Assembly: GCA_002788855.1 (NCBI GenBank)
Contig: PFSB01000006.1
Span: 99,292 to 163,291, forward strand
Length of the DNA: 64,000 nucleotides
Source: Candidatus Roizmanbacteria bacterium CG_4_9_14_0_2_um_filter_38_17
Lineage (GTDB): Bacteria; Patescibacteriota; Microgenomatia; GCA-00278855
Reading direction: 5' to 3'
Shown here: positions 17,245 to 58,860 of the stretch, piece after piece
How the letters are laid out: every line of letters starts with the position of its first letter
Numbering within the stretch: position 1 is the stretch's first letter
Program-made: the position numbers and the translations under genes
Notes under the pieces: generated by a model
Databases searched by the model: none
Seen by the model: only the letters and a program-made list of their open reading frames with translations
What the model was told of the DNA's origin: nothing

Positions 17245-18347
17245 TGTTAATAGGTGTTGATGGTAATGAGGCTAATCAAGACACAAGGGTAGGAATTGGT
17301 AGGTATGCGATGGAACTGCTATGGCAGTTCTACAATTTTCAAATACCAAATATCAAACTCCAAATTTATTTAAAAGATAAACCGAGAGGCCATATGCCTA
17401 AAGAGAAAGATGGGTGGGAATATAAAATTGTTGGTCCTCGAGCGTTTTGGACACAAATAGGTCTACCAATTGATCTATTTTTAGACAAAAATAGACCAGA
17501 TATATTCTGGACACCAACACATTATGCTCCGCGTTTTTGCCCCGTCCCAAGTATTGTATCGATCATGGACACTTCGTATCTACACTATCCAGAAATGTTT
17601 AAGAAAAGAGATCTATATCAATTGACGAGTTGGAGCAAATATTCAATAAATAACGCAGCTATGGTTTTGACTATCAGTAAAGCAGCAAGAGCTGATATAA
17701 TTAAGTTCTATAATGTTGATCCGACAAAAGTAGTGGTTACTTATCCGGGGATTGTAATGAATAAAAATATACTAACGAATAAGATTTTAGCTAAATATGG
17801 AATTAAGCCCAACTTTATTCTGTATGTTGGCACGCTTCAGCCACGCAAGAATTTAGTTCGCTTAATAGAGGCATTTGGTCTGTTGGAAAATAAGACGTTG
17901 CAGTTAGTTATAGTTGGAAAAAAAGGTTGGTTGTTTGACGAGATATTTACAAAAGTAAATGAGCTAGGACTGGAAGATAGAGTTATTTTTACAGGATTTG
18001 TGCCGGACGAAGAACTTTCAAGCTTCTATCAAGAAGCCAAGCTAATTACTTTAGTAAGTCTGTATGAGGGATTTGGGTTACCACCTCTTGAGGCGATGAG
18101 TTATGGTACGCCAGCTGTAGTTTCAAATGTCTCTAGTTTGCCGGAGATTGTTGGTGAGGCGGGTATTTTAGTTAATCCAGAGGATTCATCAGATATAGCC
18201 TCCGGAATAACGAAGGCTCTTACTATGTCTGATTCGGCTTATAATAAGCAAAGGGAGCTGGCAAAAGCACAAGCAGCTAAGTTTAATTGGAGTGACACAG
18301 CTAGAGAGACGCTTCAAGTATTGCAAAGTGTAGTTGGGAATATATAA
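17241..18347 (+). CDS. Glycosyltransferase family 4
   Basis: VGTLQPRKN, SLYEGFGLPPLEAM. Confidence 0.95.
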   Translation: MMLIGVDGNEANQDTRVGIGRYAMELLWQFYNFQIPNIKLQIYLKDKPRGHMPKEKDGWEYKIVGPRAFWTQIGLPIDLFLDKNRPDIFWTPTHYAPRFCPVPSIVSIMDTSYLHYPEMFKKRDLYQLTSWSKYSINNAAMVLTISKAARADIIKFYNVDPTKVVVTYPGIVMNKNILTNKILAKYGIKPNFILYVGTLQPRKNLVRLIEAFGLLENKTLQLVIVGKKGWLFDEIFTKVNELGLEDRVIFTGFVPDEELSSFYQEAKLITLVSLYEGFGLPPLEAMSYGTPAVVSNVSSLPEIVGEAGILVNPEDSSDIASGITKALTMSDSAYNKQRELAKAQAAKFNWSDTARETLQVLQSVVGNI

Positions 18348-18362
18348 AGATCGGATCTTTAT
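18339..18362. repeat. REP-A dispersed copy AATATATAAAGATCGGATCTTTAT
   Basis: 24/24 identical to 35343-35366; contains the GT stop codon. Confidence 0.9.
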
Positions 18363-18369
18363 TAATTAT

Positions 18370-32783: not shown

Positions 32784-34163
32784 ATGGATGATTTAATGAA
32801 AAAAATTGTTTCCCTGAGTAAGCGACGCGGATTTGTGTATCCTGGTAGTCAGATCTATGGTGGATTAGCTAATACCTGGGATTACGGACCGTTAGGAACT
32901 ATGTTAATGAAGAATATTCGTGATAGTTGGTGGACGCTGTTTATTACTCAAAGAAGAGATATGTTTCCGCTTGATTCGGGAATTCTTATGAGTCCTAGGG
33001 TGTGGGAGGCTTCGGGTCACACTTCAACTTTTAATGACATGCTTATAGATTGCCGTAACTGTAAATTGCGTACAAGAGCAGACCATCTAATAGAGGAACA
33101 CTTTGAAGAAAAAAAAGAAGAAATAAAGGTAGAAGGTTTATCTAGTCAGGACTTGGCAGATATTATTCAGAACCATGGAATTGTGTGCCCTAAATGTAAA
33201 AAAATAGATTGGACTGCTCCACGTGCTTTTAATCTATTATTTGAAACTAACATCGGTATTGTCCCAGAGAATCAGTCAAAAGCTTATTTACGAGGAGAGA
33301 CAGCGCAAGGAATATTTGTTAATTTTAAGCAGGTCGTAGAAAGTATGCGCCCTAAATTACCTTTTGGAATAGGTCAGATTGGTAAATCATTTAGAAATGA
33401 GATTACCAAAGGTAATTTCGTGTTTAGAACTTTGGAGTTTGAGCAGGCTGAGATCGAGTATTTTTTTGATCCAGAACAAGATGACTGGAGAAAATTGTTT
33501 AATAGCTGGAAAGATAAAATGCAGACATTTGTAGTTGATGAATTAGGGATAGATAAGGCGAAGCTACGTTGGAGAAAGCATACAGATGATGAACGCTCGC
33601 ACTATTCCAGACATACAGAAGATCTGGATTACAAGTTTCCGTTTGGATATAAGGAGTTATGGGGAATTGCCTATCGCACAGATTTTGATCTAAAGCAGCA
33701 CATGGAGGAAAGTGGACAGGATCTTAGATATCTTGACCCCCAGACTAATAAAAAATTAGTACCTCATGTAATTGAACCAGCTGTGGGAGTAAATAGATTG
33801 TTTTTGATGGTTCTGGTTGATGCGTATACAGAGGAAGAAAAACGGACAGTACTAAAACTTAAGCCAAGCCTAGCTCCTTATGTTGCAGCTATTTTCCCTC
33901 TCTTGGGTAATAAGCCAGAATTAAAAGAAAAAGCAAAGGCTATATATGATAAGTTGCAAAAATATTTTAGCGTCACTATAGATGAGAGGGGTAATATAGG
34001 TAAAAGATATTTTGCTCAAGACGAGATTGGAACACCACTGTGCATAACTGTAGATTTTGAAACCCTTACGGACGGCGCTGTGACAATCAGAGAACGAGAT
34101 ACAATGGCGCAGAGTAGAGTTGCAATTGATAAAATAGTAGATTATATTAATGATATACTATGA
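32784..34163 (+). CDS. glyQS: Glycyl-tRNA synthetase, homodimeric type
   Basis: KRRGF, DYGPLG, YLRGETAQGIF, GKSFRNEI, VIEPAVG, DEIGTP. Confidence 0.97.
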   Translation: MDDLMKKIVSLSKRRGFVYPGSQIYGGLANTWDYGPLGTMLMKNIRDSWWTLFITQRRDMFPLDSGILMSPRVWEASGHTSTFNDMLIDCRNCKLRTRADHLIEEHFEEKKEEIKVEGLSSQDLADIIQNHGIVCPKCKKIDWTAPRAFNLLFETNIGIVPENQSKAYLRGETAQGIFVNFKQVVESMRPKLPFGIGQIGKSFRNEITKGNFVFRTLEFEQAEIEYFFDPEQDDWRKLFNSWKDKMQTFVVDELGIDKAKLRWRKHTDDERSHYSRHTEDLDYKFPFGYKELWGIAYRTDFDLKQHMEESGQDLRYLDPQTNKKLVPHVIEPAVGVNRLFLMVLVDAYTEEEKRTVLKLKPSLAPYVAAIFPLLGNKPELKEKAKAIYDKLQKYFSVTIDERGNIGKRYFAQDEIGTPLCITVDFETLTDGAVTIRERDTMAQSRVAIDKIVDYINDIL

Positions 34164-34612
34164 AAAATTTAGTTATTGGAGTTGTGGTTTTGATTTTCTT
34201 GGTAATAGGCGGTTGGTTTCTATTTGGTAAAAATACCAATTCAGATATAGAATTGCTGTCAGAGCCAACAGTGACTCCAGCACTTGCCCCTATAGGAGAT
34301 GAGGTTAGTGTTAATTTTGAACCAAATAAAGCCCGTACGAAGGCTACCCTTGTAATCAGTGGCTTAGATAAGGCGGGAGTTGAAAGTTTAGAATATGAAG
34401 TACTCTACGAAACATCTGGCTTAGTTAAAGGAATAAATTCTGGTAGTTCACCTGTTGAGGTGGATGTTAATGGTGAAGTTGAGCGAGAGCTGGACTTTGG
34501 AACGTGCTCTAGTGGAGTATGTAGATATGATAAAGAAATAGGCACTATTACGCTAATAATCCGCTTTAATACCAGCTCTGGCACCAAACTCTTCAAACAA
34601 GAATACAACTAA
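34160..34612 (+). CDS. Membrane-anchored hypothetical protein
   Basis: N-terminal TM; FGTCSSGVCRYD motif. Confidence 0.8.
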   Translation: MKNLVIGVVVLIFLVIGGWFLFGKNTNSDIELLSEPTVTPALAPIGDEVSVNFEPNKARTKATLVISGLDKAGVESLEYEVLYETSGLVKGINSGSSPVEVDVNGEVERELDFGTCSSGVCRYDKEIGTITLIIRFNTSSGTKLFKQEYN

Positions 34613-34619
34613 CCCCAAC

Positions 34620-34642
34620 ATATAAAGATCCGATCTTTATAT
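34620..34642. repeat. REP-A left copy ATATAAAGATC-C-GATCTTTATAT
   Basis: Perfect 11-bp arms, central C. Confidence 0.92.
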
Positions 34643-34660
34643 ATGATATTATTAGTTTGT

Positions 34661-35344
34661 ATGAGACTAGTCAATTTTGTGAATGGTCAGGTTTATCACA
34701 TATATAACAGAGGTGTTCGCAAGGATTTACTTTTTTATAGAGATTCTGACTATGTGAGGTGGGAAAATCTTTTATCCTGGTGTTCTAACTATAGCTATCC
34801 ATTTAGTAGTTATGTTCAAGGGCTAAAATCGCTTAGTAAGGAGAAGGCTAGTCTTGATGCCTATCAAGAACGTATAGAAAAAGAATATCGTTACAGTCGG
34901 CCTCTTGTTAATATTCTTTGCTATATTGAGATGCCTAATCATTTTCACTTAGTTCTCGAGCAAAACGTTGAATCAGGCATTTCTTTGTTTATGCAAAAGC
35001 TGTCCATTGCGTATGCAATGTATCTTAATAGTAAATATGAGCTATCTGGGTCAGCTTTTCAAGGTAAATATAAGTTTGTACACGTAGAAACAGATGCTCA
35101 GCTAGTTCAGCTGTTAAAGTATATGTTACTTAATCCCGTAGTTGCACTCATAGTTTCAATTTTAAATCTAAAAAAATATAAATGGTCAGCACTTAAAGAG
35201 TATTTGGGAAATACTGACAAGATGATAGTCGACACAACCAAGTTGCCTAGTGTGTTTATAAACCCACAGGAGTTATTAAATTTTCTTAAAGAGGAGTCAG
35301 GCTCTGGATTTACAGCGGAACTTGGTTCACTAGTTATAGACTAA
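34661..35344 (+). CDS. REP-associated tyrosine transposase (RAYT/TnpA-REP-like Y1 HUH nuclease) 1
   Basis: YHIYNRG, MPNHFHL (HUH), YAMYLN, FQGKYK, YMLLNP, KWS; flanked by inverted palindromes; ATG 34661 preferred. Confidence 0.92.
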   Translation: MRLVNFVNGQVYHIYNRGVRKDLLFYRDSDYVRWENLLSWCSNYSYPFSSYVQGLKSLSKEKASLDAYQERIEKEYRYSRPLVNILCYIEMPNHFHLVLEQNVESGISLFMQKLSIAYAMYLNSKYELSGSAFQGKYKFVHVETDAQLVQLLKYMLLNPVVALIVSILNLKKYKWSALKEYLGNTDKMIVDTTKLPSVFINPQELLNFLKEESGSGFTAELGSLVID

Positions 35345-35371
35345 TATATAAAGATCGGATCTTTATATATT
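35343..35371. repeat. REP-A right copy AATATATAAAGATC-G-GATCTTTATATATT
   Basis: Perfect 14-bp arms, central G (inverted relative to the left copy); overlaps the RAYT stop. Confidence 0.92.
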
Positions 35372-35389
35372 GGTTGTGGTGAAGATGTC

Positions 35390-35443
35390 TTGACACGTAG
35401 CTTAAATGTGGTGTAGAGTGGATATAAGTGGTGAAAAGTGGTG
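35390..35443 (+). promoter_or_regulatory. dcw promoter with four MraZ-binding GTGG repeats
   Basis: TTGACA at 35390; GTGG at 35408, 35418, 35428, 35438 (10-bp period). Confidence 0.85.
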
Positions 35444-35445
35444 AA

Positions 35446-35883
35446 ATGTTACTAGGTAGATATACGAGCCGTGTTACAGACAAGGGCAGAGTTGCCTTGC
35501 CAGCTAAGCTCAGAGCTGAACTAGGAGAAAAAATAGTAGTGACTCAGGGATATGAAAAATCACTAATCTTAGTTGGCGAGAGTAGTTGGCGAGAGCTGAT
35601 CAAAGGAACAAGTCAAAAGCCTTTTACTATTGGCGCAGCACGCGACACCACGAGGTTTTTATTAGGTAGCGCTAGTTCGGCGATTTTAGATAAGCAAGGT
35701 AGGTTTGTGTTACCTGACTATCTTAAGCAGCACGGTGAGATAACAAAAGAGGTAATATTTCTTGGATTAGGCACGTATATTGAGCTTTGGGATAAAAAGC
35801 GCTGGGAAGAATATCAGGAATATTTAAATGTGAATATTGAAGATATATCAGAGAGATTAAGTAAATTAAACATTGAAAAATAG
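35446..35883 (+). CDS. mraZ: Division/cell wall cluster repressor MraZ
   Basis: DKGRVALP and DKQGRFVLP repeats, IELWD; ATG 35446 preferred. Confidence 0.95.
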   Translation: MLLGRYTSRVTDKGRVALPAKLRAELGEKIVVTQGYEKSLILVGESSWRELIKGTSQKPFTIGAARDTTRFLLGSASSAILDKQGRFVLPDYLKQHGEITKEVIFLGLGTYIELWDKKRWEEYQEYLNVNIEDISERLSKLNIEK

Positions 35884-36757
35884 TACACACTATGCATCTC
35901 ATATACCCGTTCTTCCACGGGAAGCTGTGGATAGCTTAAAGGTGAAGAAGGGTGAGAAATATATTGATGCAACGCTTGGTTTTGGTGGGCATACAAAAGA
36001 GATCCTTAAAAAAGGTGGAATACTTCTTGGAATAGATTGCGACGGTGAAAATCTGGCATCAGTAGGTAAGGATTTATCAGCATATGACAGCAATAGTTGG
36101 AAGTTGGTGCAAGGAAATTTTGAGAATATACAAAATATTGCAGAAGTAGAAGGGTTTAGCTCGGTCTCAGGTGTTCTTTTTGATCTAGGGATATCTAATT
36201 GGCAGTTGGATGAATCTAATCGGGGTTTAAGTATTCGTTTTGATCTTGATTCAGAAGAAAAACTAGATATGCGCTTGGATCAAACTCAAGAGATTACCGC
36301 TGAATATATAGTAAATAAATATTCTGAAAAAGAACTATATGAAGTGTTTAGTAAGTATGGTGAGCTAAGAGAAGCAAAAAGTATAGCAAGAATTATTGTA
36401 AAAAAACGGCCAATAGTTACAGGTAGTAAGCTTGTAACAATCATAAATTCAGTTGCCAGCTCAAAGAGCTTATTGGCAAGATCATTTCAAGCACTGCGTA
36501 TAGAGGTAAATCATGAACTTAGAGCACTAAAATCAGGGTTAGCTGGAGCAGAAGCCATCCTTAAGCCAGGTGGAGTATTAGCTGTTATTAGTTTTCATTC
36601 ACTAGAAGATCGACTGGTTAAACAGGCGTTTAATAATTGGTCAAATACAAAAAAGATGGAGGTAGTAACAAAACAGCCAATTACAGCTGGCACTCAAGAA
36701 GTAAAAGCAAATTCTCGAGCAAAAAGTGCAAAACTTAGAGTTGCTATAAAAAAATGA
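35873..36757 (+). CDS. rsmH: 16S rRNA m4C1402 methyltransferase
   Basis: HIPVL, DATLGFGGH, FQALRIEVN, ISFHSLEDR, SAKLR. Confidence 0.97.
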   Translation: MKNSTHYASHIPVLPREAVDSLKVKKGEKYIDATLGFGGHTKEILKKGGILLGIDCDGENLASVGKDLSAYDSNSWKLVQGNFENIQNIAEVEGFSSVSGVLFDLGISNWQLDESNRGLSIRFDLDSEEKLDMRLDQTQEITAEYIVNKYSEKELYEVFSKYGELREAKSIARIIVKKRPIVTGSKLVTIINSVASSKSLLARSFQALRIEVNHELRALKSGLAGAEAILKPGGVLAVISFHSLEDRLVKQAFNNWSNTKKMEVVTKQPITAGTQEVKANSRAKSAKLRVAIKK

Positions 36758-37026
36758 AAAAAACAATAATTCTAACCCTGATTCCGTTGTTAATATTATT
36801 TGTTGTACAGATTACTGTATCTGCAAAAGTCTCTGGCATAGGTAAAGATGTGGCGCTTATTGAAGCCAATGCGATCAAACTTGACCGCGAAAATGATTTA
36901 TTACAGCATAAAGTAGCTAGTGAAACTGCCCTTCTTATAGTGCAGCAAAAAGCTGAAAAACTGGGAATAACTACCAAGGTTCCCGTTGAGTTTCTTGACG
37001 ATTCGGTGTATGTTGTACAGAGATGA
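36754..37026 (+). CDS. ftsL: Probable cell division protein FtsL
   Basis: TM plus coiled coil, AEKLG; located between rsmH and ftsI. Confidence 0.65.
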   Translation: MKKTIILTLIPLLILFVVQITVSAKVSGIGKDVALIEANAIKLDRENDLLQHKVASETALLIVQQKAEKLGITTKVPVEFLDDSVYVVQR

Positions 37027-38693
37027 ACCGGTTACGCTTTATAGGGCTGTTGTTTATGTTAGTCTTCTTGCTAATCTGGGTTAGGCTTTTTTATTGGCAG
37101 GTAATTCAGCGGGATCGGCTCGCAACTCAAGCACAAGGACAATATGCTTCGGAGTATAGTGTATTTCCAACGCGCGGCAAAATTCTATCAGTTGATAATG
37201 CTGTTATTGTTACTAATCAACCTGCTTACATCCTATTTGCTGAGACTAAAAAATTACCTTCAGATAAGAACTATATATTTGAGATAGCCAAGGCGTTGGA
37301 AATTGAAGAAGCTTCGATTGCCGCAACTCTAGATACACAAAAAAACTGGGTGTCTGTAGTTCGTAAAGTAACCACGGAACAAAAACAACTTATTGAGGAG
37401 TTAGAGATTTCTGGTTTGGGTTTTGAACAGGAGAATGTGCGTTTTTATCCTGAAGGCTCGGCAAGTGCTGCTTTATTGGGTTTTGTAGGTGGAGATCTAA
37501 GCGGAGAGCCCAAGGGCTATTTTGGGCTTGAGGGTTATTATGATGAAATTTTGACGGGCAAGCCAGGTTTTGTACGTGCTGAAAAAGATGCACATGGGGT
37601 ACCAATACCCATAGGCTCACAAAAGCGCATAGAAGCTATTGAGGGCGCTGATTTAGTGTTAAATATCGACGTTGGAATTCAAAATGCTGTAGAGCAACAC
37701 TTAAAACGAGGAATAGAACGATATGAAGCAACGTCTGGCGCGGTTATTGTGATGCGCCCTACAACTGGTGCAATAGTCGCAATGGCGTCTTTTCCCTCTT
37801 ATGATCAGCGAGACTATGCAAATTATGATCCGAAGCTGTACAAAAATTCAATAGTGGCTGATACATTCGAACCTGGTTCAACTTTTAAGGTTATTACTAT
37901 GGCTGCTGCTATCAATGAAAAGGTAATTAAACCAACAACTACATATATGGAAACCGGACCTGTAGTTGTGCAGGGATACAAAATTAGAACATGGAATGAG
38001 CAATATGGTGGAAAGACAAATATGACCGAAGTGCTTGAAAGATCTTCTAATGTGGGAATGGTGTTTATTAGCCAGAAACTTGGCATAGAGCTTTTTTACA
38101 AGTATCTTCGTGAATTTGGCTTTGGCGCATATACTGGTATAGATCTTCAGGAGGAAGTAAGTTCTCCTTTGCGTAAAAGAGATTCCTGGAAAGAGATAGA
38201 TCTGGCAACCTCATCTTTTGGCCAGGGAATAGCTGTAACTCCAATTCAGTTAATACGCGGGGTTGCGGCAATTGCTAATCAGGGCGAGCTGGTGGTGCCT
38301 AAAATTGCAAATGCCATGCGCTTTGAGGATAATAGGGTGATTGACCTGATGACGGAACAAGGCAAGAGAGTGATATCTCCAGCTACCGCAAGTATAGTGA
38401 CGGAAATGATGGTTTCATCAGTAGATAATGGTGATGCGCGCTGGGCTAAGCCAAAGGGTTTTCGTATTGCCGGCAAAACTGGTACTGCCCAGATTCCAGT
38501 TGAGGGTCGTTATGATCCAGATCGTACTATAGCTTCTTTTATTGGTTTTGCTCCAGCTAATGATCCCGAGTTTATTATGCTTGTAATACTTAAAGAACCT
38601 CAGACTTCTCCTTGGGGGTCTGAAACAGCAGCGCCGCTTTTCTTTGATATCTCCCGCGACCTCTTTGCGTATCTGAATGTATCTCCAAGTTAA
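37023..38693 (+). CDS. ftsI: Class B penicillin-binding protein FtsI
   Basis: EPGSTFK (SxxK), SSN, KTGTAQ. Confidence 0.93.
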   Translation: MNRLRFIGLLFMLVFLLIWVRLFYWQVIQRDRLATQAQGQYASEYSVFPTRGKILSVDNAVIVTNQPAYILFAETKKLPSDKNYIFEIAKALEIEEASIAATLDTQKNWVSVVRKVTTEQKQLIEELEISGLGFEQENVRFYPEGSASAALLGFVGGDLSGEPKGYFGLEGYYDEILTGKPGFVRAEKDAHGVPIPIGSQKRIEAIEGADLVLNIDVGIQNAVEQHLKRGIERYEATSGAVIVMRPTTGAIVAMASFPSYDQRDYANYDPKLYKNSIVADTFEPGSTFKVITMAAAINEKVIKPTTTYMETGPVVVQGYKIRTWNEQYGGKTNMTEVLERSSNVGMVFISQKLGIELFYKYLREFGFGAYTGIDLQEEVSSPLRKRDSWKEIDLATSSFGQGIAVTPIQLIRGVAAIANQGELVVPKIANAMRFEDNRVIDLMTEQGKRVISPATASIVTEMMVSSVDNGDARWAKPKGFRIAGKTGTAQIPVEGRYDPDRTIASFIGFAPANDPEFIMLVILKEPQTSPWGSETAAPLFFDISRDLFAYLNVSPS

Positions 38694-38721
38694 AGTTAAT
38701 TGTTTTAGCTCTTATTAGCGG

Positions 38722-38748
38722 TCTATTAAAAACTGGGTTTTTAATAGA
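38722..38748. repeat. REP-B left copy TCTATTAAAAAC-TGG-GTTTTTAATAGA
   Basis: Perfect 12-bp arms, loop TGG. Confidence 0.93.
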
Positions 38749-38771
38749 ATATTTGGTATTCTTGTATTGTT

Positions 38772-39482
38772 ATGAGAAAAGATGCGGTGTTTGTAGTCGG
38801 TGAGTTTTATCATGTATATAATAGAGGAACTCGTAAAAGCGAAATATTTTTGAATGAAAGTGATTATAGACGATGAGATGAGTGTTTGTATTGGAGTAAT
38901 AATTTTGGCTATCCCTATAGTCTTCTAAGACAGCAAATTAATCAGGCGAAAAAGAGTGGTAGAAATATTAAAGAAGTAGTTGAACAAATTGAAATGCAGT
39001 ACCGATTATTTGAGTCTTTGGTTAATGTAATTTCTTACGCACATATGCCAAATCACTTTCACCTAGTCTTGAGGCAAAATGTAGATAATGGAATATCAAA
39101 ATTTATGCATAAAATGTCGGCTTCTTATGCAAAGTACTTTAACAAGAAGTACAATCTAACCGGATCACTGTATGAAGGAAATTTTAGAGCGATTCAGATA
39201 ATATCTGAACCTCAACTATTAGAAGTTAGTAGATATGTTCATATTAATCCAACTGTAGCAGGAATTGTTGATATAAAGGGTTTGCTTACATATCCCTGGA
39301 CATCGTTGCGTTTATATGTAGGAGAAGTGAATAATAAGCTCGTTGATATCAGTTATTTACTCGGCTTAAGTAATAATAACGCAGAAGAGCTGGTAAGGTT
39401 TACTCTTTCCAGGATTAGCGATGATAATGAAGGACTATTGGAAGGGATAATGATTGATGGTAACAAATTAGCCCGTAAATAA
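38772..39482 (+). pseudogene. RAYT-like transposase 2 with a single in-frame TGA at codon 35
   Basis: MRKDAVFVVGEFYHVYNRGTRKSEIFLNESDYRR*DECLYW... is in frame with track ORF 38886; MPNHFHL, YVHINP, YPWTS intact; TGA 38874-38876 aligns to Trp of RAYT1. Confidence 0.88.
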
Positions 39483-39484
39483 GC

Positions 39485-39511
39485 TCTATTAAAAACCCAG
39501 TTTTTAATAGA
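39485..39511. repeat. REP-B right copy TCTATTAAAAAC-CCA-GTTTTTAATAGA
   Basis: Exact reverse complement of 38722-38748. Confidence 0.93.
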
Positions 39512-39642
39512 ATTGCAGTGATTATGAAGAGGGTGTGAAGGATAAATCCGGTGATGTACCAGGAAGAGCTACTAGTACTAGCTCACATATAGGAAACTAG
39601 CAGTTTTTAGGTGGAAGATAAGACTTAAGATATAATACATCC

Positions 39643-40920
39643 ATGGCTTTAGTTACAAAGCTTCGTGGTCTGATTCCAAATAATTTAGTTAATACTTTTT
39701 GGCATTATCCTATTGCTTTGTTTGCGGCTTTGAGATATGGGTTTCCAGCTAAAAAACTTACTTTAATTGGGGTAACAGGTACAGATGGAAAGACTACTAC
39801 AACTTACATTATTAACCATTTGTTAAAAAAAGCTGGATATAAAACAGCTATGATCACGTCTGTATTGGCGGAGATAGCTGGCAAAACTAGTAATACAGGT
39901 TTTCATGTTACCAGTCCCCATCCTTGGCAAGTGCAGAAATATTTAGCTGAAGCAGTTAAATCTGGGGTAACTCATGCGATTCTAGAAGTTACTTCCCACG
40001 CATTGGATCAACACAGATTTGCCGGTTGTAGTTTTAGGTATGGAATTGTAACGAATATTAAACCTGACCACCTGGACTATCATAAAACTTATGATAACTA
40101 CTTTCATTCAAAGTCTAAGCTACTCTTAGGAGCTCAAAAAGCAGTTCTTAACAAAGACGATCAAAGCTTTAACAGGCTAAATACACTCTTAACAGGAAAA
40201 GATATTGTTACGTATAGCATTAAGGAGCAAGCAGACTTTACAGGTAAAAAAATAATACAAACAAGTATACCTGTCACTCTACCAGGAGATTACAATCTAT
40301 CCAATATTCTGGCCGCCACAGCCGTTGTAAATAATATTGGCCTCTCTATTGATGAAGTTAGTAAATATTTACCATCTTTTAAAGCAGTACCAGGCAGATT
40401 TAATGAAGTAGATATTAAAAAAGACTTTCGGGTAGTAATAGATTTTGCCCATACGCCCTATGGTTTACAGGCTTTACTTACTGCGCTGCGGAATCAAACT
40501 CAGGCAAGAATTATAGCTGTATTTGGTTGTGCGGCAGAACGTGGAGCAGATAGGCGAGAGATGGGCAGGGTAGGTGGTAAGTTGGCAGATATAACAATTA
40601 TTACAGCCGAGGATCCTCGTTTTGAAGGCGTGGAAAAGATAAGCGCTGTGATTGCAGGTTGGGCAGATAAAGCTGGAGCAGAAGAATTAAGCAGCAAACA
40701 GTTAGGAGATAGTAGCAAAAAAGATAAGCATGTATATACTAAAATAGCAGATCGGCAAGGGGCAATAAATGCTGCAATAGACATTGCAAAGCCTGGAGAT
40801 ATTATTGTTTTATGTGGAAAAGGACACGAGCAAAGTATGAATTTTAGAGGAGTTGAATATCCTTGGGATGAAAATAAGGCTGTTCAAAAAGCCCTAACTA
40901 AAAGATATGGATCTAAGTAA
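39643..40920 (+). CDS. murE: UDP-MurNAc-tripeptide synthetase MurE
   Basis: GVTGTDGKTTT, LEVTSH, DHLDYH, DFAHTP, EDPR, GKGHE. Confidence 0.92.
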   Translation: MALVTKLRGLIPNNLVNTFWHYPIALFAALRYGFPAKKLTLIGVTGTDGKTTTTYIINHLLKKAGYKTAMITSVLAEIAGKTSNTGFHVTSPHPWQVQKYLAEAVKSGVTHAILEVTSHALDQHRFAGCSFRYGIVTNIKPDHLDYHKTYDNYFHSKSKLLLGAQKAVLNKDDQSFNRLNTLLTGKDIVTYSIKEQADFTGKKIIQTSIPVTLPGDYNLSNILAATAVVNNIGLSIDEVSKYLPSFKAVPGRFNEVDIKKDFRVVIDFAHTPYGLQALLTALRNQTQARIIAVFGCAAERGADRREMGRVGGKLADITIITAEDPRFEGVEKISAVIAGWADKAGAEELSSKQLGDSSKKDKHVYTKIADRQGAINAAIDIAKPGDIIVLCGKGHEQSMNFRGVEYPWDENKAVQKALTKRYGSK

Positions 40921-42343
40921 AATTAAGCATATACATTTTGTTGGTATAAAAGGTGTAGGGATGACATCTCTAGCTGTATTAGCCCATGAGATGAAAAAAA
41001 AGGTGACTGGTTCTGATGTTTTGGAAGAATTTGTGACAGACAAAGTGCTTAAAGATCTGAAGATTGAAGTATTTGGGGAATTTAATGGAGAGAATTTTAA
41101 GAAGTTACTAACAAGATACAGCCCCCCAGAATTATTAGTAGTTACAACGGGTGCACACCAAGGATTTAATAATCTAGAGGTACAACATGCTAAAGAGCTA
41201 GGCTTTAAAGTAGTCTCCCACGCTCAAGCTTTGGGTATATTATCCATGCATAAGAATGTGATTGCTGTTGCTGGAACGCATGGTAAGTCAACAACAACTG
41301 CAATGATAGCGCATGTTTTAACTGAAGCTGGGACAGATCCATCATACTTAGTGGGAGTTGGAAGCATACCTTCATTACCAAATCCAGGTCATCACGGCAA
41401 GGGTAATTTGTTTGTAGTTGAAGCTGACGAATATGTAACTGATCCTCAAACAGATCCTACCCCACGGTTTCTGTGGCTTAAGCCTAAGATATTAGTAATA
41501 ACATCCGTCGAATATGATCACCCAGATGTTTATTCAGATGTTTACAAACTAGTTCAAGCATTTAGAGAGCTAGCGGAAAAAGTACCCATAGATGGTACCA
41601 TCATTGCCTGTATAGATAACCTAGGTGTGGAGAAAGCTCTAGAGGGCTCTAAGGCTAAGATTATTTGGTATGGATTCTCTCCTCGTGCAGATTATAGAAT
41701 CAAAAGTTATTATCCAACCTTATTATCTGGCGGGCAAGTGGTTTTAGAGTTTTGTGTTGAACACCAAAAACGTGAGTTATTTTGCACACAGCTGGCGGTA
41801 TCTGGTAGACATAATAGCTTAAATGCATTGGCATGCATTATTGCTTGTGTTGAGGTAGGAGTATCGTGGACTAAAGCACCCGAATACCTGAGAAGTTTTA
41901 CGGGTACGGGGCGCAGATTTGAGTTAAAAGGCCAACAAGGAGAGACCGTACTATACGATGATTACGCACATCATCCAACTGAGATTAAGGCTGTGCTGGC
42001 TATGGCTAAGGAGCTCTACGTGGGTTATCATATTATAGCTATATTTCAGCCCCATACATATTCACGCACTAAAGCTCTGTTTAAGGACTTTGCAAAATCT
42101 TTTACAGATGCGAATGAAACTTATTTATTAGATATTTTTTCCTCGGCCCGAGAAAAGAAAGATCCATCTATTTCATCACAAGAATTAGCCAAGGAAGCTA
42201 GTAAGCATGGGGCGCAGGTTAAATATGTACGAAGTGTTCTGGAGATGGTTAACAGGATAAAGTCGAAATTAGGGAGTAAACAGGTTATAATTACGATGGG
42301 AGCTGGAGATGTATACAAGATACACGATAAGCTAAAAGTCTAA
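40907..42343 (+). CDS. murC: UDP-MurNAc-L-alanine ligase
   Basis: HFVGIKGVGM, GTHGKSTTT, EADEY, DDYAHHPTE, FQPHTYSRT, MGAGD. Confidence 0.96.
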   Translation: MDLSKIKHIHFVGIKGVGMTSLAVLAHEMKKKVTGSDVLEEFVTDKVLKDLKIEVFGEFNGENFKKLLTRYSPPELLVVTTGAHQGFNNLEVQHAKELGFKVVSHAQALGILSMHKNVIAVAGTHGKSTTTAMIAHVLTEAGTDPSYLVGVGSIPSLPNPGHHGKGNLFVVEADEYVTDPQTDPTPRFLWLKPKILVITSVEYDHPDVYSDVYKLVQAFRELAEKVPIDGTIIACIDNLGVEKALEGSKAKIIWYGFSPRADYRIKSYYPTLLSGGQVVLEFCVEHQKRELFCTQLAVSGRHNSLNALACIIACVEVGVSWTKAPEYLRSFTGTGRRFELKGQQGETVLYDDYAHHPTEIKAVLAMAKELYVGYHIIAIFQPHTYSRTKALFKDFAKSFTDANETYLLDIFSSAREKKDPSISSQELAKEASKHGAQVKYVRSVLEMVNRIKSKLGSKQVIITMGAGDVYKIHDKLKV

Positions 42344-42344
42344 T

Positions 42345-43604
42345 ATGGCAAAATTTATAATAAATGGCAGAAATAGACTAGAAGGAAAAATTAAGGTTGC
42401 GGCTAATAAGAATGCGGTTTTGCCAGTAATGGCGGCAACGCTTCTTTGTGAAGGAACAAGCATTATTCATAACGTACCTGAAATAAAAGATGTTGAGGTA
42501 ATGGTGAATATTTTACGCAAGCTGGGAGCAAAAGTAACCTTAAGCGAGAGAACATTAACAGTAGACAGCTCAAATATAACCAATCTAGAAATACCACGTG
42601 ATCTAGCTCAACGCCTGAGAGCATCAGTATTATTGTTGGGACCATTACTTGCAAGAGCTGGAGAAGTTAAGCTTCCTCATCCTGGTGGTGATGTAATAGG
42701 TAGGCGTGGTATTTTCACACATATTTCTGCATTGACGAAGCTAGGGGTTCAAATTACTCAAGATGACCTCATGTACTATGGCAAGGTTATTCAGAAAAAT
42801 GCAGTGAAAGTATTTTTAGATGAACCCTCAGTGACAGGCACAGAAAATGTCATGATGTACGCGGCTTTAACAGATGGTGAAACAGTGATAGAGAATGCTG
42901 CAGCTGAACCTCATATTGTTGATCTATCTAGATTTTTAGCATCAGCTGGTGTAACTATCGAGGGAGCAGGAACTAGTAGAATTAGAATAATAGGAAAAAA
43001 GAGCTTAAAGGGCGGAGAGTATACAATTTCTCCTGACCCGATTGAAGCGGGCACATTTGCAATTGCTTCTGCAGTAACCAAAGGAGACCTGGAGATTGGA
43101 CCAATTGTACAAGATGACATGCAGATGATAAAGATAGTGCTGGAGAGATTTGGCGTTAATCTAAAGTTTGATAAAGATAAACTTCGTGTAAATTCCAAAG
43201 AAATAACAGCACCTCTTAGACCTGTGCAAGCAATGGTTTGGCCTGGCTTTCCAACTGACCTTATGAGTCCTTTAATCGTGCTTGCCACACAGGCAGAAAG
43301 GCAGACCCTGTGTCATGATCCTCTTTATGAGTCACGCATGTTCTTTGTTGATAAGCTAATTAGAATGGGGGCTCACATTACAATCTGTGATCCGCATCGT
43401 GTCATTGTGTATGGCAAGTCAAACTTGTATGGAAGAGAGCTGGCAAGTCCAGATATACGAGCAGGAATGGCCTTAGTTTTGGCGGCTTTAATAGCGGAGG
43501 GTAAGAGTGTTATTGATCAAGCAGAGATTGTTGAAAGGGGATACGAGAATATTGACAAAAGATTGCGTATAATAGGAGCAGATATTAAAAGATCTAATGA
43601 TTAA
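42345..43604 (+). CDS. murA: UDP-GlcNAc enolpyruvyl transferase
   Basis: KNAVLP, RAS, PGGDVIGRR, PGFPTDL, DIRAG, RGYE. Confidence 0.96.
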   Translation: MAKFIINGRNRLEGKIKVAANKNAVLPVMAATLLCEGTSIIHNVPEIKDVEVMVNILRKLGAKVTLSERTLTVDSSNITNLEIPRDLAQRLRASVLLLGPLLARAGEVKLPHPGGDVIGRRGIFTHISALTKLGVQITQDDLMYYGKVIQKNAVKVFLDEPSVTGTENVMMYAALTDGETVIENAAAEPHIVDLSRFLASAGVTIEGAGTSRIRIIGKKSLKGGEYTISPDPIEAGTFAIASAVTKGDLEIGPIVQDDMQMIKIVLERFGVNLKFDKDKLRVNSKEITAPLRPVQAMVWPGFPTDLMSPLIVLATQAERQTLCHDPLYESRMFFVDKLIRMGAHITICDPHRVIVYGKSNLYGRELASPDIRAGMALVLAALIAEGKSVIDQAEIVERGYENIDKRLRIIGADIKRSND

Positions 43605-44841
43605 ACAAGCAGTTATATTGGCAGCAGGCGAGTCATCAAGGTTTCAGCCGTTGTCTGCATATAGGCATAAAGCAGAAATCCCATTGCTTGGTAAAAGTTT
43701 GCTCCAGCGCACGGTAGATAACTTACAGAGCATTGGTGTAGAAGAGGTTATTATAGTTCATTCGCCAGATCGAAGACCTCAGTTATTTGCTCATGAGTGT
43801 GAACTAAGATTTGTAGTTCTAGATAAACCTACAGGAATGGGAGATGCCCTGCTGGCAGCTTTAGATTTTTTGGATGATAAATATTTTGTGCTTCATCCCT
43901 ACCACTTTGCGGGAGTTAATTACATGAAAAAGATGGTTAAGGTTACAGCTGAAAATAATGGCTGTTTATTAGTAACTGATCCCGTAATAGGAAAAAGCGG
44001 TGGACTTGCCACGGTTGAAAAGGATGACATTGTCCAGGTTGAGGAGATGGAGTATAAGGGGGGAGATAATAAGAAATATGTTCTTGGAATATATTTACTA
44101 ACCAAAACATACACAGATATTTTGCAACAGACTAAAAAAGATCACTATAGTTTTGAACTTGCCCTTGATCAATATGCAAGAGCTAACAAATTATCCTGGT
44201 TTCAGGTTAGAGACTACTCAGTATCGCTAAAATACCCCTGGGACTTATTCAAGATCAAGGATACGCTTCTTCGCTCTAGTAAAGCAAGTATAGCGAAAAC
44301 AGCGAAAATTGACCCAACAGCCGTGATAGATGGGGTAGTTATTATCGATGAAAATGCGAAAATAGGAGCATATGCCGTTATTAGAGGTCCCGCATATATT
44401 GGTAGAAATGTACGAGTAGGAGATCATGCTTTGGTTCGTGATTTGACTACATTGGAAGAGGGCTCGATGGTGGGTGGTTCAGCAGAAGTAAAAAATAGTA
44501 TTGTTTTGGAAGAGTCTCATGTGCAGGGATATCTTGCAGACTCTATAGTGGGGCAAGAGGTGAGAATAGCTCATGGATTTGTTTCAGCTAATCGCCGCAT
44601 TGATAGGGAAACCATCTCTGTAGAGGTTAAAGGTAAAAAAATAGATACAAGGTTTTTTGCCCTGGGTTGTATAGTAGGTGATAATGTTTATACGGGTATA
44701 AATGTGGCAACTATGCCAGGGGTTAAAGTTGGTGAGAATTCAATAGTTGGCCCTCGTACCACTGTGTTTGCGAATGTCCCTCCAAATGTTCGGTATTATC
44801 AAAAAGCCGAATCCCACACAGAAAAGATTATAAAGAAGTAA
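43597..44841 (+). CDS. Bifunctional sugar-1-phosphate nucleotidyltransferase/acetyltransferase (GlmU-like)
   Basis: ILAAGESSRF, KYPWDL, C-terminal hexapeptide repeats. Confidence 0.85.
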   Translation: MIKQAVILAAGESSRFQPLSAYRHKAEIPLLGKSLLQRTVDNLQSIGVEEVIIVHSPDRRPQLFAHECELRFVVLDKPTGMGDALLAALDFLDDKYFVLHPYHFAGVNYMKKMVKVTAENNGCLLVTDPVIGKSGGLATVEKDDIVQVEEMEYKGGDNKKYVLGIYLLTKTYTDILQQTKKDHYSFELALDQYARANKLSWFQVRDYSVSLKYPWDLFKIKDTLLRSSKASIAKTAKIDPTAVIDGVVIIDENAKIGAYAVIRGPAYIGRNVRVGDHALVRDLTTLEEGSMVGGSAEVKNSIVLEESHVQGYLADSIVGQEVRIAHGFVSANRRIDRETISVEVKGKKIDTRFFALGCIVGDNVYTGINVATMPGVKVGENSIVGPRTTVFANVPPNVRYYQKAESHTEKIIKK

Positions 44842-44847
44842 TCTGCT

Positions 44848-45555
44848 ATGAATAGTTATCATAGGCAACTATTGGTTAATATCCAGAAGAATTCAAGAAG
44901 AGAAGATTTGTCATTACACAATAGCCAGAAGTACTGTGGGACAAGTGACAAATTCTACAATCTTAAAACAGAAATCAAGCGTCAGGCTGCAAAAGAATTT
45001 TTTAGAAAGTATCTTGATTTATCTTTCGATGAGTATATTGAGCTTTTGGATTCTTTGAACACTGGAAAATCCTATGAAGAAAAAACTATTGCCTCAATGA
45101 TTTTATGTTTGTATAAAAACAACAAAGAACACATAGGTCCAGAACATTTAGATAAGTGGCTTGAAAATCTTGAAGGTTGGGCAGAAATTGATTCATTATG
45201 CCAGTCTTCTTTTGGTGCTGATGAAATATTACTAAAATGGAACAGTTGGGAAAAAGCCTTAATTACTTTCTCCAGATCAGATTTTATTAGCAAAAGAAGA
45301 GCGAGTCTTGTTTTGCTTGTAAAACCTGTAAGAGACGCTAAGAATGATAAGTTGTTTAGTCTTGCGCTGGAAAATATAGATAAATTAAAGAAAGAGAAAG
45401 ATATATTAATTACAAAAGCAATTTCGTGGTTGTTACGGGATATGATAAAAAACTATAGAAATGAAGTAAGGCATTACTTGAAGGAAAATAGAGAAACTCT
45501 CCCAAAAATTGCTATAAGGGAAGTAACAAGGAAACTAGAAACAGGAAAGAAGTAA
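44848..45555 (+). CDS. DNA alkylation repair protein (AlkD-like HEAT repeat)
   Basis: WAEIDSLC, KRRASLV, KAISWLLR, AIREV. Confidence 0.85.
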   Translation: MNSYHRQLLVNIQKNSRREDLSLHNSQKYCGTSDKFYNLKTEIKRQAAKEFFRKYLDLSFDEYIELLDSLNTGKSYEEKTIASMILCLYKNNKEHIGPEHLDKWLENLEGWAEIDSLCQSSFGADEILLKWNSWEKALITFSRSDFISKRRASLVLLVKPVRDAKNDKLFSLALENIDKLKKEKDILITKAISWLLRDMIKNYRNEVRHYLKENRETLPKIAIREVTRKLETGKK

Positions 45556-45572
45556 GCAGTTAGATTATAAAT

Positions 45573-45797
45573 ATGGAAGCTAGAGAAGCAAGTATTATAA
45601 CAGGTGTAATTGCAGAGAAATATGGTCTGGATAACATAGAAGTGAGTGGTTGGCTACATAATGCATTAGATCCTGGACTAGGTCCAGAAAGCAATCAAAA
45701 AGCGAGAGGATCGCTAAATCATGCTCTTGACGAATCGGATGTAACCTATTTACTTGGTATTTGGGCTGATTGTATAGCCGACTCCAACTCTGCTTAA
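45573..45797 (+). CDS. Small hypothetical protein
   Basis: 74-aa ORF with TAGATT -10-like element 6 nt before ATG. Confidence 0.55.
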   Translation: MEAREASIITGVIAEKYGLDNIEVSGWLHNALDPGLGPESNQKARGSLNHALDESDVTYLLGIWADCIADSNSA

Positions 45798-45824
45798 ATA
45801 TCTGGATTGGATCTAGTTCTGGCT

Positions 45825-45894
45825 CTATTAAAAACTGGGTTTTTAATAGGTTGTTAAATCAAGCTATTAAGGGGGTCAACTATTTAAATTACAG
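45825..45894 (+). repeat. 70-bp direct repeat copy 1, starting with REP-B (45825-45849)
   Basis: 62/70 identical, ungapped, to 47378-47447. Confidence 0.92.
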
Positions 45895-46028
45895 GAAGTG
45901 ATTTCCATTATTGGGACACAGAGCTCGTAATACTTTTTAAACTTCAAAAAAAGTTCCAAAATTTTTGTCATTCAAAAGTTAACCTCATTTTAAGTTCGAA
46001 TCCCACTCGGCCGTGGTATAATAATTGT

Positions 46029-46469
46029 ATGGAAACCTTTCTTAATTTTCTAACAGTATTCGGGCTTGGAAGCGTTATAACTGTATTTATCACACACAAA
46101 CTAAAACAATCCTCAGAATCAAAAATAAAAATGAGAGAATTAAAAGAAAATCAATATAAAAGTCTTCTTAATAATTTAATGGGTTTTTTTGAGGGATGGG
46201 AAGACTATGCAGTTGCAGATAAAAAAGCTCGCAAGAAACAATTCTTGTGGGAAGTTTATACAAGCGTTCCTGTATATGCATCAGATGTGGTTATAAGGCT
46301 TTGCTATGAGTTTATAGAAAGCCATAACAAAGAAGGGAAATTGAAAGGAGAGAGCAATAAAATTTATTCAAAAATCGTAATTGCTATGAGAATGGAATTA
46401 AATAAAATTTATGGTCAGCCAGATACTACACTTTCAGAGAAAGACATTAAAGTTCTTAAAGTTGATTAA
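46029..46469 (+). CDS. Hypothetical protein with N-terminal TM
   Basis: 146-aa ORF; TGGTATAAT 6 nt before ATG. Confidence 0.8.
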   Translation: METFLNFLTVFGLGSVITVFITHKLKQSSESKIKMRELKENQYKSLLNNLMGFFEGWEDYAVADKKARKKQFLWEVYTSVPVYASDVVIRLCYEFIESHNKEGKLKGESNKIYSKIVIAMRMELNKIYGQPDTTLSEKDIKVLKVD

Positions 46470-46508
46470 TGATTCAAAGCAGAGCAGACAAAATTACAAA
46501 AACTGACA

Positions 46509-47330
46509 ATGAATATTTTTCAGAGTAAGTACTTCAACGTTGTTCTTCCAGTTTTATTTGTTTTGTTTCTTTTGCTGCTACTTGTCTATGGTTGTTTAAT
46601 TGGCATATATGATGTTATAACTTTAGCTGTAAATGCCGTCCTTATGCTCCTTGCTACGCTAATTGCAATTTCACTACCTTTGTATGCAAGCGCGAAAAAT
46701 GAACAAAAACGCAGGGATAAGGAACATGAAATGATTTATGTATCTGTATCCCGATACGTTGGCGGTGAAATCTTGGATAATGTTATAGAGATTCAAGATA
46801 TTCTAAAAAATAATGAAAAATCTCTAGGCCAACTGGATAAACAAAATCTTTCTATGTCAGAAAGAGATAAAAAAATAGTTACCGCTTCTATATGGAAAAC
46901 GGCTTCAGAAATCCTTGTTGGTTCGCTTCAGGATAAACATCACAACAATATGGTTATGTCTGGTTTAGTAGCCAAAATTCCCGATGACGCTGTTGGCAAC
47001 GGAATTCGTGATACTTATCAAAAAATGGATAATCTAAAAAAGCGACTCAAAAGCATAACGATGTTTTTTGGAATGCTTATATCTCCCCAAGTTGGGGTTT
47101 CTAAAACATTCTTGGATTATCAGTTTAATACGAAACTGCAAGAAGGTATTACTGCTGTTGAATTGGATATAAAGATATTTAGCGATTCTGCAGAAAAAAC
47201 TAGAAAAGACATTAACAAGCTACTGAAACAATATGGGAAAGAGATTAAAATTATAGCTTATGAAAAAGTACATAACTCTGAAAAAGGATCTAGAAAAACT
47301 GAAAAATCTTCCATTTCTTCAAAAAAATGA
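46509..47330 (+). CDS. Hypothetical protein with two N-terminal TMs and helical domain
   Basis: 273-aa ORF, no recognised motif. Confidence 0.8.
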   Translation: MNIFQSKYFNVVLPVLFVLFLLLLLVYGCLIGIYDVITLAVNAVLMLLATLIAISLPLYASAKNEQKRRDKEHEMIYVSVSRYVGGEILDNVIEIQDILKNNEKSLGQLDKQNLSMSERDKKIVTASIWKTASEILVGSLQDKHHNNMVMSGLVAKIPDDAVGNGIRDTYQKMDNLKKRLKSITMFFGMLISPQVGVSKTFLDYQFNTKLQEGITAVELDIKIFSDSAEKTRKDINKLLKQYGKEIKIIAYEKVHNSEKGSRKTEKSSISSKK

Positions 47331-47377
47331 GCAAGAGATTGTTGATAAATAGCTATAGCTATGGTTGAAAGATGTTT

Positions 47378-47447
47378 CTATTAAAAACTGGGTTTTAAAT
47401 AGATTGTTAAATCAAGCTTTTAAGGAGGTCTACCCTTTAAATTTCAG
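47378..47447 (+). repeat. 70-bp direct repeat copy 2, starting with REP-B (one mismatch)
   Basis: CTATTAAAAACTGGGTTTTAAATAGATTGTTAAATCAAGC... Confidence 0.92.
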
Positions 47448-47579
47448 ACCCTTTAAATCCAGATAATGGGGTCAGCCACCTATTTAGAAAAAATACAAGG
47501 ACAAATCTTGTAGAAAATATATATGCAAATTTTCTACTCAATTGGGAAACGGCACCTTTTTTCATTTAACGCTCAACTT

Positions 47580-47616
47580 AAGGCAAGGTCTTCCATTTCA
47601 TGTAAGGCCTTGCCTT
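47580..47616. repeat. Inverted palindrome doublet AAGGCAAGGTCTT-N11-AAGGCCTTGCCTT
   Basis: Units are 12/13 reverse complements; just downstream of the TrmB stop. Confidence 0.75.
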
Positions 47617-47624
47617 GTTTCGCG

Positions 47625-58833: not shown

Positions 58834-58860
58834 CCTATTAAAAACTGGGTTTTTAATAGG
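58834..58860. repeat. REP-B dispersed copy CCTATTAAAAAC-TGG-GTTTTTAATAGG
   Basis: 25-nt core identical to 38723-38747. Confidence 0.93.

Follow-up and report, generated by a model that had tools for sequence, protein, structure and literature searches.

The 64,000-nucleotide stretch of DNA analysed here (the window) comes from Candidatus Roizmanbacteria bacterium CG_4_9_14_0_2_um_filter_38_17 (contig PFSB01000006.1, positions 99,292 to 163,291) and contains two genes for RAYT-like HUH nucleases, RAYT1 and RAYT2, at the dcw cluster. The gene order is glyS-like, a 150-residue protein of unknown function, RAYT1, mraZ, mraW, ftsL-like, ftsI, RAYT2 and murE, where the names of the host genes were assigned from reading their translations. 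Each RAYT gene is bracketed by its own pair of palindromes, as proposed in an earlier note on this DNA: the 30-nucleotide REP-A arms around RAYT1 are 97% complementary, and the 27-nucleotide REP-B arms around RAYT2 are 100% complementary (Table 1). All four palindromes fold into DNA hairpins with three-nucleotide loops (z from −5.1 to −6.8), and none of 200 shuffled sequences folded as well.

The palindrome–gene–palindrome cassettes of the window differ from the surrounding genes in their similarity to relatives. When mraZ was used as the query of a scan, two relatives were retrieved, the metagenomic contigs L158 and L159. The window and L158 are 88–91% identical overall, and L158 and L159 are about 75% identical. 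RAYT1 differs between the window and L158 at 1 of 86 four-fold degenerate sites, compared to 153 of 548 in five neighbouring genes with divergences of 19–32% (Fisher P = 2e-10). RAYT2 differs between L158 and L159 at 4 of 84 four-fold sites, the two copies being 1.7% different, whereas three neighbouring genes, with divergences of 43–68% (68% in ftsI), together differ at 184 of 289 such sites (P = 2.5e-24). RAYT2 of the window is 41–46% diverged from both relatives at four-fold sites. The 200-nucleotide bins with identity of at least 97% are confined to the cassettes (4 of 40 bins in the RAYT1 comparison and 4 of 34 in the RAYT2 comparison), and none of the 61 bins compared between the window and L159 reaches this value. 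The near-identical RAYT2 tract stops 7 nucleotides beyond the right REP-B and fades over approximately 80 nucleotides to the left of the left REP-B. It is likely, judging from these alignments, that near-identical cassettes at the same spots were swapped between lineages.

A complete cassette and an additional gene are present in some of these lineages and absent from others. L159 lacks RAYT1 together with both REP-A copies. In L158, RAYT1 lies between two REP-A copies, the second of which (b) is followed by a 184-residue serine-hydrolase gene and a third REP-A (c); the hydrolase is absent from the host genome of the window. The right REP-A of the window is composed of the left flank of L158 copy b fused to the right flank of copy c. 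The loop of the REP-B downstream of RAYT2 is in the reverse orientation at the same site in both L158 and L159. The glyS-like gene of L158 (L158:119-1399) has a 5′ part unlike that of the window and a 3′ part that aligns, which suggests an intragenic allele replacement.

Table 1. Positions of cassette components and related features in the window
Feature	Position	Strand	Remark
REP-A, stand-alone	18341..18365	.	
REP-A, left copy	34615..34644	.	Palindrome centre 34631
Extended −10-like box	34644..34652	+	Ends 8 nt 5′ of RAYT1 ATG; abuts REP-A palindrome
RAYT1	34661..35344	+	Intact 227-aa HUH-Y1 nuclease; H94, H96, Y154, N158-P159
REP-A, right copy	35344..35373	.	Centre 35357
Sigma-70-like promoter of mraZ	35390..35419	+	Undisturbed by RAYT1 cassette; also present in RAYT1-less L159
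REP-B, left copy	38722..38748	.	Centre 38735
Extended −10-like box (predicted)	38754..38762	+	9 nt 5′ of RAYT2 ATG
RAYT2	38772..39482	+	236 codons, one of them a nonsense TGA (38874-38876); L158 and L159 have intact copies
REP-B, right copy	39485..39511	.	Centre 39498; loop opposite to orthologous copy in L158 and L159
REP-B, stand-alone	45824..45850	.	Left end of two-gene AT-rich segment
REP-B, stand-alone	47377..47403	.	Right end of two-gene AT-rich segment; direct repeat ~65 bp
REP-B, stand-alone	58834..58860	.	

The two cassettes belong to a large set. The genome of the host, a groundwater bacterium (G000; 1.087 Mb, 98.85% complete, 0.26% contaminated), encodes nineteen RAYT paralogs that are 24–63% identical to each other, and a profile search added none. 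A segment common to both flanks was detected in 17 of the 19 (score of at least 12; the best of 60 controls scored 11), and is inverted in ten paralogs and direct in seven. There is one palindrome family per paralog or per pair of paralogs, and the 17 families comprise 249 sites, 212 of which stand alone, away from any RAYT gene, with 1–31 such copies per family. REP-A has 18 sites, 16 of them stand-alone, and REP-B has 11, nine of them stand-alone; the earlier description of the repeats as single applies next to each gene, and genome-wide it does not. A Markov-shuffled genome contained no match to any of 16 cores. REP-A is present in 1 of 301 genomes of the phylum, that of the host alone.

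Intergenic regions, which constitute 11% of bases according to crude open reading frame calls, contain 146 of 202 stand-alone palindrome sites, after ten edge sites were dropped. Stand-alone copies are enriched between convergent genes and depleted between divergent ones (84/38/24 versus 309/78/127, P = 4e-4), and no strand bias relative to the upstream gene was evident. Several sites are present in 36 of 211 palindrome clusters, 20 of which mix families, and inverted doublets occur. Neighbours of the same family separated by 150–3000 bp number 23, compared to 11.3 ± 3.1 in label permutations (0 of 500), and these pairs often enclose between one and three small genes; of 21 such genes, 12 have no Pfam match. 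Variants of the palindromes covary exclusively at paired positions inside the stem. A locus-specific lengthening of palindromes by fold-back copying was considered and rejected (not significant past offset 11; 78 of 1000 permutations). The C15, C19 and C24 families have a tail with a −35-like hexamer, including in their stand-alone copies, and this tail may be a portable promoter part. At another locus (L178, G000:C24:73-1743), a gene for an RrnaAD rRNA adenine dimethylase and a GIY-YIG gene are each flanked by direct C7_17570 palindromes.

A comparison within the class extends these observations. The family is matched in 96 of 151 class genomes, the host included, and the others carry 1–13 matches. 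We collected 109 foreign loci, which are best hits rather than a random sample and include a few duplicates, and dropped three at contig edges. A shared flanking segment was found in 89 of the remaining 106, compared to 5 of 105 controls, and is direct in 60 and inverted in 29. In a comparison of 97 loci, the similarity of cores decreases with tree distance (rho −0.47 by Mantel test, 0 of 999 permutations), and the cores form two broad types, with REP-A and REP-B belonging to the same one. These results support the existence in Patescibacteria of a RAYT-like system, distinct from ordinary IS200, with a different palindrome for each paralog and no GTAG foot, and the covariation of protein and palindrome that the earlier note had proposed to test. 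Other elements of that note have to be revised. Inverted copies are present in both window cassettes, but the orientation does not define the system, given the direct repeats in the host and elsewhere and the flipped loop of REP-B. The palindromes had been called unrelated, but the 13-nucleotide cores of REP-A and REP-B match at eight positions, and all five differences are transitions. The suggested swap of hairpin specificity is not supported: the cores resemble variants of a single type that have diverged, and no case was seen of paralogs trading palindromes.

RAYT1 and RAYT2, which are 39% identical, match Pfam Y1_Tnp weakly, just above the cut-off, and score 29.6 and 37.9 bits against NCBIfam NF047646 (REP_Tyr_transpos; cut-off 80), with RAYT2 scored as a 198-residue piece. 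Residues H94, H96, Y154, N158 and P159 of RAYT1 form the HUH and Y---NP motifs, which are also present in RAYT2, and the H-x-H and catalytic tyrosine are invariant in all 19 paralogs. The top fold match of the AlphaFold model (pLDDT 90.6) is E. coli TnpA-REP (4er8; Z 15.4, root-mean-square deviation 2.9, 154 residues); the TnpA proteins of IS608 (Z 10.3) and ISDra2 rank behind it. The motifs are NHFH, FQ, YMLLNP and WSA in RAYT1, and NHFH, YE, YVHINP and WTS in RAYT2, and the consensus of the paralog family agrees with the motifs NH[YF]H, FQ, Y[IV]HLNP and SS of TnpA-Y1 subclass 2.1. For a C-terminal helix-turn-helix (Bac_DnaA_C, HTH_23/28), Pfam returned only Y1_Tnp, and the C-terminus of the model consists of two short low-confidence helices. 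An extra two-helix segment of about 35 residues (approximately residues 48–76) precedes the HUH strand and varies among paralogs; we speculate that it contributes to specificity. The segment RW..LL.W, previously regarded as shared by the two proteins, marks a clade of ten of the nineteen paralogs (support 100/97), which includes RAYT1 and RAYT2 and into which none of 80 other loci falls, but RAYT2 matches the segment only partially. Paralogs at C13:13919, C14:626 and C7:5476 contain their own palindrome in frame just past the catalytic tyrosine and have lost the NP motif.

RAYT2 of the window is interrupted by a single TGA, at codon 35. The contigs of four sequencing runs, three of which possibly derive from the source sample, contain no other letter at this position. 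Because the TGA is alone in a gene under purifying selection (dN/dS of approximately 0.1), and because both L158 and L159 have tryptophan at codon 35, RAYT2 in the window's population is best read as a recent pseudogene. An alternative genetic code was rejected, since the relatives have tryptophan and TGA serves as the stop codon of mraW and ftsL.

Approximately 56 stand-alone palindrome sites lie within long reading frames. Among 22 host genes scanned, those with copies include gnd, pth, gatB, miaA and one for a P-type ATPase. In gnd, a REP-A peptide replaces about six residues without a gap relative to homologs that are 82% and 79% identical, and is common to one 86% identical homolog. In pth, a palindrome copy has taken the place of a stretch that was, on balance, two residues longer, and four close homologs share it. 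Comparison with distant structures suggests net insertions in gatB and miaA. Palindrome copies in genes thus appear to arise by insertion and by replacement alike. Copies in folD, gdh and trxB are possible chance matches and were given no weight. The P-type ATPase gene (C1:17122-19572) and a gene for a DUF2298 membrane protein (C11:29659-31875) each contain in-frame palindromes of two families.

Other features of the window concern the surroundings of the cassettes. The box at the 5′ side of RAYT1 is predicted to be a promoter from which RAYT1 is transcribed almost without a leader; extended −10-like motifs are located 4–11 nucleotides upstream of the start in 13 of 19 paralogs, compared to 186 of 1112 called genes. 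No terminator-like sites were found around RAYT1, and an Rfam scan of positions 33000-48000 returned no RNA family match. The tetranucleotides GTAG and GTGG are not present at the hairpin foot in the flanks of the 18 REP-A and 11 REP-B sites, and the motif GGGGWSAS is absent from the REP-A and REP-B sequences. The glyS–mraZ interval encodes a predicted membrane-anchored protein of 150 residues without a Pfam match (34160-34612), which is kept in L158 and L159. Positions 45820-47445 contain two AT-rich genes of unknown function (146 and 273 residues; 32% GC) inside direct repeats of about 65 bp, each composed of REP-B and a degenerate second palindrome. One low-depth contig joins position 45861 to 47626 and would skip this two-gene segment; its left side is approximately 39 nucleotides long, and we take it as a hint only. 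A special tie to the dcw cluster is not supported: the remaining 17 paralogs adjoin unrelated genes, and several class relatives have no RAYT copy at the RAYT1 and RAYT2 sites. For the same reasons, a functional link between RAYT and dcw genes was rejected; the dcw cluster is probably no more than a place where landing is tolerated.

Based on the comparisons of cassettes, palindromes and host genes, a mechanism can be proposed, to which we assign a probability of about 60%: the RAYT-like HUH nuclease of each cassette nicks and rejoins its own hairpin, scatters the palindrome, and swaps cassettes between lineages. The RAYT/REP-type system of this organism is probably still mobile. By analogy to TnpA-REP and IS608 TnpA, the enzyme would bind its palindrome as a single-stranded hairpin, nick it by means of Y154, and rejoin the ends. 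Cuts at two hairpins would release a cassette or a cargo segment, so that two copies of one palindrome may delimit a segment for the enzyme to excise or capture. Incoming DNA from a relative would then replace the resident cassette, with host repair completing the ends; the enzyme, beyond host recombination alone, presumably sets the boundaries of the exchange. Cutting and recopying inside the hairpin may flip the loop, and small excised pieces of palindrome could seed the stand-alone copies. Short pieces rejoined or annealed at partly matching sites would result in overwriting or in-frame insertion, of which selection would keep the harmless cases. The upstream palindrome over the predicted promoter may permit autoregulation. 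New paralogs would arise rarely, after which protein and palindrome would drift together. A broader generalization, in which up to nineteen orthogonal HUH nucleases per genome each direct their own cassette to one and the same locus in distant lineages, take up or release passenger genes between their palindromes as integrons do, and rewrite short pieces of host genes length-neutrally, so that Patescibacteria possess a palindrome-addressed gene shuffling, is tentative and less likely than not.

Several observations weigh against the proposed nuclease-driven exchange. The evidence for exchange comes from two metagenomic contigs, L158 and L159. The genome contains no near-identical paralogs, the maximum identity being 63%, which means that no gene has recently jumped elsewhere in it. 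Neither a conserved foot nor a guide tetranucleotide was found that would explain the choice of the cut site. Protein and palindrome do not covary within the ten closest paralogs (rho 0.07, P = 0.65). The contigs of the four runs contain no excision joint or inversion at the palindromes, although contigs drop rare variants. At four loci of genera g3 and g4, the orthologous cassettes have diverged to the same degree as their flanks (69–74%); the genera of G016 and G019 contained one genome each, and the flanks of L160 had no orthologous locus. Loci L169 and L171 (G003:C5 and G062:C1) share a 6.5-kb tract of 98.9% identity in genomes that are otherwise 75% identical. The tract spans the RAYT gene and reaches far beyond it, and therefore ordinary recombination can also homogenize such loci. 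Among 72 candidate viral contigs there was no confirmed relative that would point to a vehicle of transfer. Nine plasmid records contained weak matches (24–36%), and one IMG/VR contig (L195) contains an exact REP-A core.

Some of these observations would be explained if the RAYT genes were domesticated and static, copying palindromes only, while the cassettes spread by host recombination after DNA uptake, with the palindromes as anchors and perhaps with a contribution of selection. The vertical-looking orthologues in two genera, the tract that exceeds the cassette, the missing near-identical paralogs, the dN/dS of about 0.1, and the similar behaviour of published RAYTs all fit this explanation. 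However, both near-identical tracts coincide with a cassette, and there is no other such tract in the 40 and 34 bins compared. Furthermore, one of the tracts spans lineages about 25% apart, in which ftsI has a four-fold divergence of 68%, and orthologous sites either carry a cassette in its entirety or lack it. We therefore consider static genes rather unlikely, if better placed than the alternatives that follow.

It is more doubtful that the palindromes are attachment sites, in which a gene circle integrates into a pre-existing palindrome and duplicates it, so that stand-alone copies are empty sites. The cargo of L158 bounded by direct REP-A copies, the window copy that is its exact hybrid, and the excess of same-family pairs around small genes are what such integration would produce. 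Nevertheless, none of five empty orthologous sites (one in L159 and four in g3) keeps a palindrome, although these sites are 25–30% diverged, and about 56 copies are inside long reading frames.

We regard it as very improbable that the proteins are domesticated transcription regulators with the palindromes as operators. The near-perfect dyad symmetry and the −10-like box adjoining the upstream palindrome in 13 of 19 paralogs are as expected for operators, but the stand-alone copies are depleted between divergent and enriched between convergent genes (P = 4e-4), many copies overwrite or insert into coding sequence, the catalytic residues are invariant, and REP-A occurs in 1 of 301 genomes of the phylum. 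We give almost no credence to an exchange signal from chimeric contigs joined at palindromes, or to the nineteen paralogs being contamination of the bin: although assemblers break at repeats and L158 and L159 are unverified metagenomic contigs, RAYT1 of L158 differs at four sites that are invariant in four runs of the window's population, RAYT2 differs by 1.7% between L158 and L159, the contamination is 0.26%, the paralogs lie among core genes, and the palindromes are spread over many contigs.

The cassettes can be compared with described systems. TnpA-Y1 subclass 2.1 (Quentin et al. 2018, PMC6006769) corresponds to RAYT group 1 (Bertels et al. 2017, PMC5581495). The likeness to subclass 2.1 includes a length of about 230 residues, low identity between copies in a genome and, in the consensus of the family, NH[YF]H, FQ replacing W, Y..LNP and a downstream serine motif. 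In contrast, PMC6006769 reports the subclass as lacking REP-like sequences, with a C-terminal helix-turn-helix and a mean of 1.9 copies, whereas here there are 17 palindrome families with 212 stand-alone sites, no Pfam hit to a helix-turn-helix, an extension of about 35 residues that contains two helices, and nineteen copies. Class 2 of TnpA-Y1 in general is resembled in the Y---NP and HUH motifs, the TnpA-REP-like fold, and the 24–63% identity among nineteen copies. With REPtrons (TnpA-REP 4er8 and group 2/3 RAYTs; PMC8266576, PMC3686654, bioRxiv 10.1101/2021.07.10.451892), the cassettes share the fold, the covariation of protein and repeat, and a cognate palindrome that flanks the gene and is also scattered through the genome, chiefly between genes, in many cases on their downstream side, and at times as inverted doublets. 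They differ in having no GTAG foot, in palindromes that are AT-rich and almost perfect and stand singly on each side in one orientation or the other, in their 17 families of 1–31 stand-alone copies, and in the signs that cassettes are exchanged and carry cargo; RAYTs, in contrast, are described as non-jumping. TnpA-REP nicks and rejoins DNA at a single-stranded hairpin palindrome, according to PMC8266576, which also mentions attC. RAYTs are reported at 1.3–1.8 copies per replicon and as mainly vertical, with occasional horizontal gain suggested (Bertels 2017, PMC5581495; Bertels and Rainey 2022; Nunvar 2013). Vertical inheritance seems to be departed from at the RAYT1 and RAYT2 loci and looks to be followed in two other genera.

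TIRtrons (TIRYTs; Di Nocera et al. 2013, PMC3733652) similarly have a RAYT-like gene inside terminal inverted repeats (TIRs) that bear no relation to GTAG REPs, and some of these repeats are self-complementary and form moderate repeat families. The cassettes differ in the absence of GGGGWSAS, present in the majority of TIRs, and in their variable orientation, direct at 60 of 89 foreign loci; Patescibacteria, exchange and cargo are not reported in the passages of PMC3733652 consulted. With IS200/IS605 elements (TnpA of IS608 and ISDra2), the cassettes share the HUH-Y1 core and a gained or lost unit that includes both hairpins and leaves a hairpin-free site, but they have Y...NP instead of Y...Q, a longer protein, the same palindrome at both ends, no near-identical copies, and no tnpB. 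The cassettes are thus REPtron-like in their repeats and IS200-like in whole gain and loss, and they fall outside the definitions of both because they have no GTAG foot and no near-identical copies. Subclass 2.1 is nearest by sequence, and TIRtrons are nearest by layout. Rickettsia palindromic elements are in-frame palindromes inside housekeeping genes, and integron cassettes are genes bounded by hairpin-forming sites. The resemblance to both is one of analogy only, since the cassettes have a cognate HUH nuclease, whereas the others have none or a tyrosine recombinase. In a collection short of most subscription journals, we found no paper on RAYT/REP in Patescibacteria, RAYT homing or RAYT cargo, although the supplementary member lists of PMC6006769 and PMC3733652 may include cases. 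New here is the evidence of exchange, cargo and overwriting rather than the layout itself.

Cassette exchange is a behaviour that the RAYT family was thought not to show, and the locus provides comparative evidence of cassette-limited exchange, a before-and-after pair for cargo, and a dated overwrite of gnd. About 17 enzyme–hairpin pairs without a GTAG guide in one genome constitute a natural panel for the specificity code and are possibly orthogonal tools for the ligation of single-stranded DNA. Small genomes were expected to carry few such genes, according to PMC6006769. The cassettes suggest a route of gene gain in the streamlined genomes of Patescibacteria.

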